A stretch of DNA of 64,000 nucleotides from a virus. The stretch spans positions 1-64,000 of IMG/VR virus record IMGVR_UViG_3300025141_017118. One strand, 5' to 3'. Under the pieces are notes generated by a model. The model was not told where the DNA came from, searched no databases, and was given only the letters and a program-made list of their open reading frames with translations. The position numbers and the translations under genes were made by a program. Positions 7,079 through 9,898 of this stretch are shown here, piece after piece. Position 1 is the first letter of the stretch. Each line of letters begins with the position of its first letter.

Positions 7079-8317
7079 CTAAAATTGTTCGGCCTCAGTG
7101 GACTCTTCCAACGCTAACGTTGATATATCACCCGCAGAAATTGTTTGAGCAACTGCATCAAAGTATCCAGTACCAACCTCTCGCTGGTGTTTTGTTGCTG
7201 TATACCCACGGGACTCAGCTCCAAACTCTTTTTCTTGAAGCTCAGCATACGCAGACATGTCGCGACCTTCATAATCCTGTGCTAATTCAAACATGTGATA
7301 ATTCAAGTTATGAAAGCCGGCTAAGGTTATAAATTGAAACTTGTAACCCATGGCCCCCAGCTCACGTTGAAATTTTGCGATGGTCTCATCATCTAGATTC
7401 TTCTTCCAGTTAAAACTGGGAGAGCAATTATAGGCCAAGAACTTGCCTGGAAACTTCTCATGAATTGCCTCTGCAAACTCTCTTGCCTCGTCTAAGTCTG
7501 GCTTACCTGTTTCACACCAAAGAAGGTCCGCATAGGGGGCATATCGAAGGCCTCTGGATATCGCCATCTGTAATCCACCGGTTATCCTATGAAAGCCCTC
7601 ACTAGTGCGCTCAGATGATGTTATGAATGGCTTGTCTTCATCGTCAATATCCGATGTCATTAATCTTGCGCTGTTGGCATCAGTACGGGCGATTAAAACA
7701 GTCTCCGTCCCCATTACGTCAGCTGCTAGTCGCGCAGCAACAAGCTTCTTAATAAACTCAGTTCCGGGTACCAAAACCTTCCCACCCAGATGACCACACT
7801 TCTTTGCAGAACTAAGCTGATCTTCAAAATGCACGCCGGCAGCGCCGGCGCGGATCATCGCCTTCATAAGCTCAAACGCATTCAGGGATCCCCCGAATCC
7901 CGCCTCTGCATCTGCAACAAGCGGAACAAACCAGTCACGAACTTTCTGGGCATCATTCTCAACCCACTCGATCTGATCTGCACGGCGGAGAGAATTATTG
8001 ATCTTCTGTACAAGCATAGGGACACTATGCACTGCGTATAGGCTCTGATCAGGATACATTTCGTGAGAATCATTTGCATCGGCCGCGACTTGCCATCCGG
8101 AACAATATATCGCGGGGACTCCACCCTTTACCATTTGCATGGCCTGGTTCCCTGTTACGGCACCCATCGCGTGCACATAATCCTTTTCGTTTAAAAGGTG
8201 CCATAACTTCGTGGAAGACTTCTCTGCGAGTGTATACGTCTCAGGAAGTGAGCCTCTCAGCCTGGTTACATCTTTTTCGTCATAGGGCCGTACTATTCCC
8301 TCCCAACGATTTTTCAT
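7079..8317 (-). CDS. aceA: Isocitrate lyase
   Basis: KKCGH catalytic signature; [51 protein letters not shown]. Confidence 0.97.
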
Positions 8318-8329
8318 TTAAATTTCTCC

Positions 8330-9898
8330 TTACAGTAGTTCATATGCCGGGAGAGTTAAAAACTCTGTCAGCTCCTTAGATAAACATAACTCACTAAATA
8401 TATTCGATGCGCGCTCAATGTTATCTTTATTTTCTAAATTATTTTCCACAAGCTCACTGGTAATTTTGTCAATCGAAGAAGCAATGAGGTGTTCGTCGAT
8501 AAGCCTTCCGCATGATAATTTGCATGCGTGTTTCTTCCAGTGCCAGACCTGGGCCCGTGATATTTCAGCGGTAGCTGCATCTTCCATCAAGTTGTACAGA
8601 GGAACGCAGCCGTTACCCCCAATCCACGCAGCCAAATACAAGATTCCTATCTCAATATTTTTATGGAGTCCCTGAAAGGTTATATCACCACTTGTGGGTT
8701 CTATAAGATCAAGTTGTGTACACCACTTTATATCCGGGGTAATAGACAACTGATTTTTGTCAGGCATATGCTCGTCGAATATTTCTTTTGCAACGTTGAC
8801 TAGCCCAGGATGTGCCACCCAAGTTCCATCATGGCCCAACTTAACTTCTCTCAATTTATCATCACGTACCTTTTTCATCGCCAATGCATTTGCAACTTCA
8901 TCATTACGAACTGGAATCTGTGCGGCCATCCCTCCAATCGCATGTGCTCCGCGACGGTGGCACGTTGATATCACTAATGTTGCGTATGAATTCATGAAAT
9001 GGCGTTCCATCGTAACCCAATCTCGATCCGGTAATACATGCTTTGGATTATTCCGGAATGTCTTAATATAACTAAAGATATAATCCCAGCGGCCGCAATT
9101 CATTCCTGCAAAATGTTCGCGCAGCTCATAGATAATTTCATTCATCTGGAATGCGGCCGGTAGTGTTTCTAGCAATACAGTTGCCTTAATTGTTCCCGAG
9201 TCTATGCCAAGTTGTTTCTGCGACCACACAAATACATCATTCCACCAACGTGCCTCTAAAAAATGCTCGATCTTCGGAAGATAGAAAAATGGGCCGGAGG
9301 AATTAGACGACTGTTTTTTTCCATTTAAAAACAAGCATACACCAAAATCAAATAAAGAAGCTGAAATGTTTTCACCATTAATCTTTACATGCTTTTCATT
9401 CAAATGAAGCCCACGAGGTCTGACCATTAATACCGCGGAGTTATCATTAACTGAATAGGTTCCCTTTGAGGGATGTTCATACGTAATGGTTCCATGCACG
9501 GCATCCGTAACATTCGAGTGTCCCTCCATAACATTCTTCCATGTCGGTGACAAGGAATCCTCAAAGTCAGCCATAAAAACACTTGCGCCTGAATTCAGCG
9601 CATTTATTACCATCTTTCTGTCCGGAGGGCCTGTAATTTCGACTCGACGATCCAGCAATGAATGAGGAACCGGAGAAATTCTCCAGTCTGATTCACGAAT
9701 ATTTTTAGTCTCCGGTATAAAATCAGGAGAAAGTCCCTGATCCCATGTGTGTTGTCTCTGCACTCTTTGTTGTAAGATTTTTTGGCGTCGTGTGCCAAAT
9801 TCTGTGTGTAGGCCTATGAGAAACTCAAGCATCTCCTCCGTTAACACATCATCATACGTGTTAACGTGTTGTATGGTCACATTATTACTCAAAGTCAA
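8330..9898 (-). CDS. aceB: Malate synthase A
   Basis: DRRVEITGP, MADFEDS, VRPRG, FYLPK, GRWDYIFS, GTWVAHPG, MEDAATAEISR, EFLTLPAY. Confidence 0.97.
   Translation of the reverse strand: MTLSNNVTIQHVNTYDDVLTEEMLEFLIGLHTEFGTRRQKILQQRVQRQHTWDQGLSPDFIPETKNIRESDWRISPVPHSLLDRRVEITGPPDRKMVINALNSGASVFMADFEDSLSPTWKNVMEGHSNVTDAVHGTITYEHPSKGTYSVNDNSAVLMVRPRGLHLNEKHVKINGENISASLFDFGVCLFLNGKKQSSNSSGPFFYLPKIEHFLEARWWNDVFVWSQKQLGIDSGTIKATVLLETLPAAFQMNEIIYELREHFAGMNCGRWDYIFSYIKTFRNNPKHVLPDRDWVTMERHFMNSYATLVISTCHRRGAHAIGGMAAQIPVRNDEVANALAMKKVRDDKLREVKLGHDGTWVAHPGLVNVAKEIFDEHMPDKNQLSITPDIKWCTQLDLIEPTSGDITFQGLHKNIEIGILYLAAWIGGNGCVPLYNLMEDAATAEISRAQVWHWKKHACKLSCGRLIDEHLIASSIDKITSELVENNLENKDNIERASNIFSELCLSKELTEFLTLPAYELL

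Follow-up and report, generated by a model that had tools for sequence, protein, structure and literature searches.

The window analysed here, a 64-kb stretch of viral DNA, comprises the first 64 kb of the 102,120-bp IMG/VR record IMGVR_UViG_3300025141_017118. It carries side by side the genes for the two enzymes of the glyoxylate bypass, a malate synthase (MS, aceB-like) and an isocitrate lyase (ICL, aceA-like), whose biochemistry in their bacterial forms AceB and AceA is established. The pair and its spacer lie as follows, with lengths in amino acids (aa):

8330..9898, minus strand: malate synthase A, 522 aa from the TTG at 9898 (TIGR01344 and Pfam)
8318..8329, minus strand: 12-bp spacer with a GGAGA Shine-Dalgarno sequence 7 nt before the ICL ATG (sequence reading)
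7079..8317, minus strand: isocitrate lyase, 412 aa, of the short-N-terminus phage type (NF011645)

The spacer reads TAA-GGAGAaatttaa-ATG. The order aceB then aceA and the distance of 12 bp given in a preliminary description of the sequence are thus confirmed by the coordinates 8330-9898 and 7079-8317.

MS scored 730.9 bits against TIGR01344 (malate_syn_A), for which the equivalog cut-off is 594.5, and contains all three Pfam domains expected of the family, MS_N, MS_TIM-barrel and MS_C (PF20656, PF01274 and PF20659). The model for malate synthase G (GlcB; NF002825) was not matched, with 22 bits against a cut-off of 565. The protein aligns over its whole length with the solved malate synthase A structures 3cux and 3cuz at 50-57% identity, and in the 3cuz alignment R160, E244, D272 and D440 of MS correspond to R166, E250, D278 and D447 of the E. 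coli enzyme. We take E. coli D447 and R166 to be the catalytic Asp and Arg, and E250 and D278 to be the Mg2+ ligands. All four counterparts are invariant in 15 phage MS. Judged by these features, MS is an intact enzyme of the AceB type with predicted malate synthase activity.

ICL is equally well defined. It reached 734.3 bits against NF011645 (cut-off 562) and 557.6 bits against TIGR01346 (cut-off 275.9), and stayed below the cut-off of the methylisocitrate lyase model (PrpB; TIGR02317), with 97.9 bits against 354.4; a side activity on methylisocitrate may nevertheless exist. It aligns end to end with the solved isocitrate lyases 6lrp, 3i4e, 1igw and 1f61. The KKCGH catalytic loop is present, as the preliminary description had read it, and TLAGFH and the other substrate- and Mg-binding blocks are conserved relative to 6lrp and 3i4e. 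ICL is, on these alignments, an intact enzyme of the AceA type, and isocitrate lyase activity is predicted.

The one departure from the characterised bacterial enzymes lies at the N-terminus. The protein begins MKNRWEG, and the segment that precedes the RWxGI motif in characterised bacterial isocitrate lyases, a non-catalytic feature, was not found in ICL. Solved bacterial enzymes align from their own residues 17-35 onward to ICL residues 2-4, and the profile match sets in at position 20 of 430. The MS stop codon, 12 bp upstream, leaves no room for a longer open reading frame (ORF). The same short form occurs throughout the phage clade: the proteins of related loci measure 406-425 aa, and over 100 metagenome clusters, 75-88% identical to ICL, measure 409-420 aa. 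The bacterial neighbours have a longer N-terminus. The missing N-terminal helix remarked on in the preliminary description is therefore real and clade-wide.

Contigs assembled from other sequencing runs place the pair firmly in the phage genome. Logan contigs of run X2, which differs in sample and in study code, show no mismatch to the window; they span 6000-7160 (ICL 3' junction), 7162-8417 (ICL/MS junction) and 9545-10046 (MS/ClpP junction). Additionally, the 2025 run X4 bridges the MS/ClpP junction (9885/9898) and X3 bridges the ICL 3' junction; stretches lacking contig cover in X3, X4 and X14 (an RNA library, see below) carry no meaning. The two genes have GC contents of 0.42 and 0.475, the phage as a whole about 43%, and in GC, GC at third codon positions and codon use the values of the pair lie inside the range spanned by the other phage genes. 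The best bacterial match is only 57% identical for MS and 68% for ICL. With all three junctions bridged by independent runs, the pair is phage-borne, and the junction chimera that the preliminary description named as a possible refutation is excluded as far as contig, synteny and composition evidence goes.

The ends of the record were inspected in the same context. Its right end (102,120) coincides exactly with a start codon, and its left end, near aceBA, cuts through a gene. An end on a start codon is typical of gene-boundary trimming, so the trimming that accompanies the IMG/VR label "provirus" would have taken place at the far end, about 92 kb from the pair. Public proteins of this phage lie on contigs of about 139 kb, so that about 37 kb are absent from the record.

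The genes around the pair and the virion and packaging module show that the record is a large uncultured marine T4-like myovirus:

35578..61172, minus strand: large terminase, portal, major head protein and two sheath paralogues (PHROG phrog_23, phrog_138, phrog_213, phrog_2)
16805-17587, minus strand: SSB (Pfam/PHROG)
15509-16702, minus strand: RecA (Pfam/PHROG)
14545-15525, minus strand: 5'-3' exonuclease (Pfam/PHROG)
13153-14538, minus strand: DnaB-like helicase (Pfam/PHROG)
10642-13137, minus strand: RNR (Pfam/PHROG)
9885..10487, minus strand: ClpP-family protease gene, directly upstream of MS (PF00574, 105 bits)
6177-6581, minus strand: M15 peptidase, downstream of ICL (Pfam)
5306-6190, minus strand: 294-aa ORF, downstream of ICL (downstream phage gene group)
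4598-5305, minus strand: ThyX, downstream of ICL (Pfam)

Essentially every gene of the window is on the minus strand. The major head protein is of the T4 type by its PHROG matches, and an SbcC-like nuclease and a DNA polymerase are also encoded (Pfam/PHROG matches). The Pfam and PHROG matches flanking the pair, together with the virion and packaging module, agree with the earlier assignment to a tailed phage with phage genes on both sides. The pair does lie inside a run of replication genes, as also proposed; the run is not gap-free, with 15 bp between the helicase and RNR genes and 154 bp between RNR and clpP. How MS itself abuts clpP depends on its start, which is ambiguous. If translated from the TTG at 9898, MS overlaps clpP by the 14 bp described earlier, whereas a GTG at 9880, which yields 516 aa as in the public protein P0001, leaves a 4-bp gap after the clpP stop.

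Several further features of this neighbourhood were recorded. The 154-bp gap holds a doubtful small ORF (10484-10729) at a place where relatives have a 131-aa gene, and RNR, of 831 aa, carries a TSCPD domain at its C-terminus. The sheath paralogues (35578-42474) are in tandem and very long (1147 and 1137 aa); both match phrog_23 in the C-terminal part only, and their large N-terminal region is unexplained. Among cultured phages, Flavobacterium phage immuto and Microcystis phage Mel-JY01 come closest; with terminase and capsid 42-47% identical, they are too distant for a host to be named from them.

We surveyed the 80 best ICL-bearing loci in IMG/VR. MS lies directly upstream of ICL in 17 of them, the reverse order occurs in one, and in 61 no MS was present in the DNA fetched around ICL. 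The IMG/VR survey suggested in the preliminary description thus yields 17 contigs with adjacent MS and ICL genes. Nine of the 17 contigs (L002, L005, L010, L012, L013, L017, L022, L030 and L050) share the same SSB-RecA-Exo-DnaB-RNR-ClpP block upstream of MS-ICL, with block genes 66-84% identical; the synteny extends to ClpP, which shows 71-84% identity in nine related viral contigs, and M15 or ThyX follows ICL in relatives. The slot occupied by the pair is variable. Relatives have an Amidase_2/peptidoglycan-binding gene between ClpP and MS (L002:7454-8392; L012:5831-8438), and in the 178-kb contig L012 a small glutamine-synthetase-like gene of 336 aa stands directly upstream of MS; the window has neither gene at this slot. 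No glutamine synthetase or acyl/acetyl-CoA synthetase domain, which would mark other carbon or nitrogen auxiliary metabolic genes (AMGs), was found in the record, about a third of the genome. Several "phage" records that match aceBA (H1-H9, H15-H18) are bacterial contigs or short fragments and do not count as phage-borne evidence, for example Salmonella whole-genome shotgun contigs of 501 kb and the 1.5-4.5-kb pieces named "Escherichia phage ECO95" and "Salmonella phage S.Kent".

To place the two enzymes phylogenetically, we examined an unrooted tree of 81 malate synthases, including 40 sampled bacterial ones from many phyla. All 40 bacterial MS fall on one side of a single branch and all phage and marine-metagenome MS on the other, with a Shimodaira-Hasegawa-like approximate likelihood ratio (SH-aLRT) support of 99. 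MS of the window is sister to two marine metagenome proteins, 62-64% identical to it. This topology is compatible with one old acquisition. In the ICL tree the aceBA phages form two neighbouring groups, whose separation from bacteria was neither shown nor rejected, and a separate, larger ICL clade of 39 IMG/VR loci is without MS. The bacterial neighbours belong to mixed phyla (52-57% identical for MS, 59-68% for ICL), so the enzyme phylogeny offers no clear donor and we rejected it as a guide to the host.

Both genes are, in qualitative terms, under purifying selection, as indicated by synonymous substitution (dS) that is saturated, and not computable in nearly all pairs, while the proteins are conserved (49-89% identical among phage copies). 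Nonsynonymous distances (dN) are 0.08-0.29 for ICL and 0.19-0.49 for MS. Each of the 120 phage pairs shows MS as the less conserved of the two, and MS evolves 2-4 times faster than ICL. Since MS of the window is 51-59% and ICL 66-87% identical to relatives, a xenologous replacement of MS from a separate bacterial source was considered; it was ruled out because the phage MS all lie on one side of the tree and MS identity is below that of ICL in 120 of the 120 pairs.

The two gene trees nevertheless disagree. By the ICL data, the group that contains the window belongs with a second one (support 100) and the MS grouping is rejected (approximately unbiased test, AU, p 8e-41); the MS data in turn reject the ICL grouping (AU p 9e-4); the tested groups were named after the trees had been seen, which makes these p-values optimistic. 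The backbone genes are mosaic too: in L007 and L014, DnaB is only 41% identical to that of the window and ICL is 80% identical. Because the MS and ICL trees conflict and DnaB and ICL differ so much in similarity in these two contigs, the data suggest that ICL, or the whole cassette, has been exchanged between distinct phage lineages. A bolder extension is that aceBA is a mobile cassette of large marine T4-like phages with two gene histories, in which ICL is swapped between lineages that share only about 40-50% identity in their replication genes, MS evolves faster and the short ICL is a deregulated, AceK-independent bypass enzyme. Should the rate of MS evolution reflect a changed substrate range or host adaptation, the phage pair would be more than a plain duplicate of the bacterial shunt. 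We regard this extension as possible but unlikely.

As to expression, no terminator-like site was found between MS and ICL, and scans for sigma-70 promoters and terminators brought up nothing specific close to the two genes. The T4 late promoter TATAAATA was discarded as a candidate signal, with two matches in the window, both on the plus strand and fewer than expected by chance. Co-transcription of MS-ICL with the replication and nucleotide genes is plausible, given that the genes run head to tail behind ClpP-RNR-DnaB, with a strong ribosome-binding site and no terminator between them. In an oligo-dT marine RNA library (run X14), three short contigs are identical to the stretch, two of them in MS; contigs at 6522-6706 and 8560-8832 are among these identical stretches, a weak hint of transcription.

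Taken together, we think it likely that the pair represents genuine phage-borne AMGs that form the phage's own glyoxylate bypass beside its replication genes. Both genes are intact, stand in the order aceB-aceA and are phage-borne, in agreement with the earlier description of an AMG pair in a phage replication-gene run. MS-ICL have the orientation of the replication and nucleotide genes, with which they would probably share a transcript. In the infected cell, ICL would convert isocitrate to succinate and glyoxylate, and MS would condense glyoxylate with acetyl-CoA to malate. Two CO2-releasing steps of the tricarboxylic acid (TCA) cycle would thereby be skipped and two carbons otherwise lost would be saved. 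C4 acids could thus be kept available during phage DNA synthesis, through oxaloacetate and aspartate to pyrimidines, and also for gluconeogenesis. An AceK or IclR domain (AceK_kinase, IclR_C) had no match in the whole 102-kb record, itself incomplete, which extends the earlier statement that neither gene is in the window. Because neither regulator is encoded in the record, the complete bypass owned by the phage may operate outside host control, independent of host aceBA expression and of AceK and IclR. A link to carbon or iron limitation, also put forward in the preliminary description, is drawn from host physiology and has no support in the sequence.

Some observations weigh against this proposal. 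The record is 32% complete by CheckV, and carries the IMG/VR label "provirus". ICL is 15-26 residues shorter at its N-terminus than the characterised bacterial enzymes, and the fast evolution of MS may reflect a changed specificity. The sole RNA-library signal comes from X14, a library that may contain DNA, and we do not accept it as proof of transcription. Most ICL phages lack MS, and ICL alone is perhaps what is selected, in which case the complete shunt may be incidental.

Three other explanations of the locus were weighed. An artefact, either a chimeric assembly or a provirus record trimmed wrongly so that bacterial DNA stayed in it, could be suspected from the provirus label, from the public proteins, whose contigs of about 139 kb exceed the 102-kb record in length, and from the fact that aceBA is typically a bacterial operon. 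Yet the synteny is kept in many viral contigs, identical contigs of other runs bridge every junction, the composition of the pair is that of the phage with phage genes on both sides, the nearest bacterial MS and ICL are only 57% and 68% identical and the trimmed boundary is some 92 kb off; we therefore hold an artefact to be extremely unlikely. The provirus label also bears on a biological alternative, lysogenic or pseudolysogenic conversion, in which aceBA would aid host growth on C2 compounds or under stress in a provirus phase and would not serve lytic replication. This reading has been proposed for the aceBA-bearing genome TARA_ERS478052_N000008, for which a lysogenic phase has been argued (PMC5332604). 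The architecture here is T4-like, with every gene on one strand and the pair within the replication-gene run, and the trimmed end is the far one (102,120, on a start codon), the near end resembling a natural contig end. No integrase or resolvase domain was detected in the 102-kb record, a weak argument given its incompleteness, and a scan of the whole record gave no tRNA. Lysogenic conversion thus appears improbable.

The remaining alternative concerns what the two enzymes are kept for. The pair might not be selected as a shunt: ICL could be the key enzyme, supplying succinate or glyoxylate (for example for glycine and C1 units or purines) or acting as a methylisocitrate lyase, with MS removing toxic glyoxylate or having drifted to another acyl-CoA/2-oxoacid reaction. 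It would account for the far greater frequency of ICL alone, seen in the 61 of the 80 best ICL loci that have no MS in the fetched DNA, in the separate ICL-only clade of 39 rows and in the 98 ICL against 22 MS genes counted in a preprint on huge phages (10.1101/2025.02.27.640493), as well as for the 2-4 times faster evolution of MS and the differing gene histories. What speaks for a shunt is that MS, where present, almost always directly adjoins ICL, that its catalytic and Mg-binding residues are invariant in the 15 phage copies, and that MS passes the malate synthase A equivalog cut-off and ICL is far below that of prpB. We consider it rather unlikely that the pair serves another purpose, and a phage-borne glyoxylate bypass remains our preferred reading.

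Phage central-carbon enzymes alter carbon routing in infected marine bacteria, between respired CO2 on one side and biomass and lysate on the other. The locus is a clean, well-supported case of a complete glyoxylate bypass in a phage, with the pair kept by selection in a widespread marine lineage. The locus introduces no new principle; what makes it worthwhile is that phage AceA and AceB could be tested biochemically on it for the first time, no such test having been found in the literature searched.

Phage aceBA is already known, and the locus is a well-supported further example, not a discovery. Genes for aceAB were reported in Pacific viromes by Hurwitz et al. 2013 (PMC4053976), an aceBA operon in the complete 178.6-kb marine T4-like viral genome TARA_ERS478052_N000008 by Nishimura et al. 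2017 (PMC5332604), and 98 ICL and 22 MS genes, both present in 22 phages and adjacent in 20 genomes, in huge phages (bioRxiv 10.1101/2025.02.27.640493), MS occurring there in phages of marine, soil and plant habitats. The latter two studies give the same reading of phage ICL and MS. With reports in 2013, 2017 and 2025 and 17 IMG/VR contigs, the view that a complete pair is rare in a tailed phage does not stand, prior description being what the preliminary description itself had named as counting against it. The present analysis contributes smaller points: nine contigs keep the pair in its place behind the replication block, phage MS separate from bacterial MS, MS and ICL differ in rate and have incongruent trees, and the short N-terminus of ICL is clade-wide.

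The closest known system, TARA_ERS478052_N000008, was compared by its published gene layout. Like the present phage, it is marine, large and T4-like, has malate synthase A directly upstream of a short ICL on the same strand (ICL 411 aa versus 412 aa here, spacing 15 bp versus 12 bp here) and is likewise without aceK. It differs in GC content (37.5% versus about 43% here), in the length of MS (502 aa versus 522 aa here) and in its setting, among small hypothetical genes with NinG/HNH, UvdE and DnaQ downstream, whereas the pair described here abuts ClpP-RNR-DnaB. The huge phages resemble our IMG/VR survey in that ICL far outnumbers MS and that the genes sit next to each other where both occur; that study is a predicted-fold catalogue without phylogeny, selection or synteny analysis, whereas ours concerns a 102-kb fragment, about a third of a genome. 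Phages with ICL alone share an AceA-type phage ICL, 55% identical in C48C1 (Kyanoviridae, OQ984149) and 64-69% in the IMG/VR loci listed, but no MS was found in the C48C1 record or in the DNA fetched around the IMG/VR ICL loci, and their ICLs form separate branches. The full-length ICL of C48C1 (L001, 7992-9233) is annotated "hypothetical protein". Finally, in aceBAK of E. coli and Salmonella aceB likewise precedes aceA, and the enzymes belong to the same two families and share their catalytic residues with the phage pair. In contrast to that operon, the phage pair comes without aceK, IclR and the N-terminal segment of ICL, is only 50% (Salmonella AceB to MS) and 62% (AceA to ICL) identical to its bacterial counterparts, and is set in a phage replication module.

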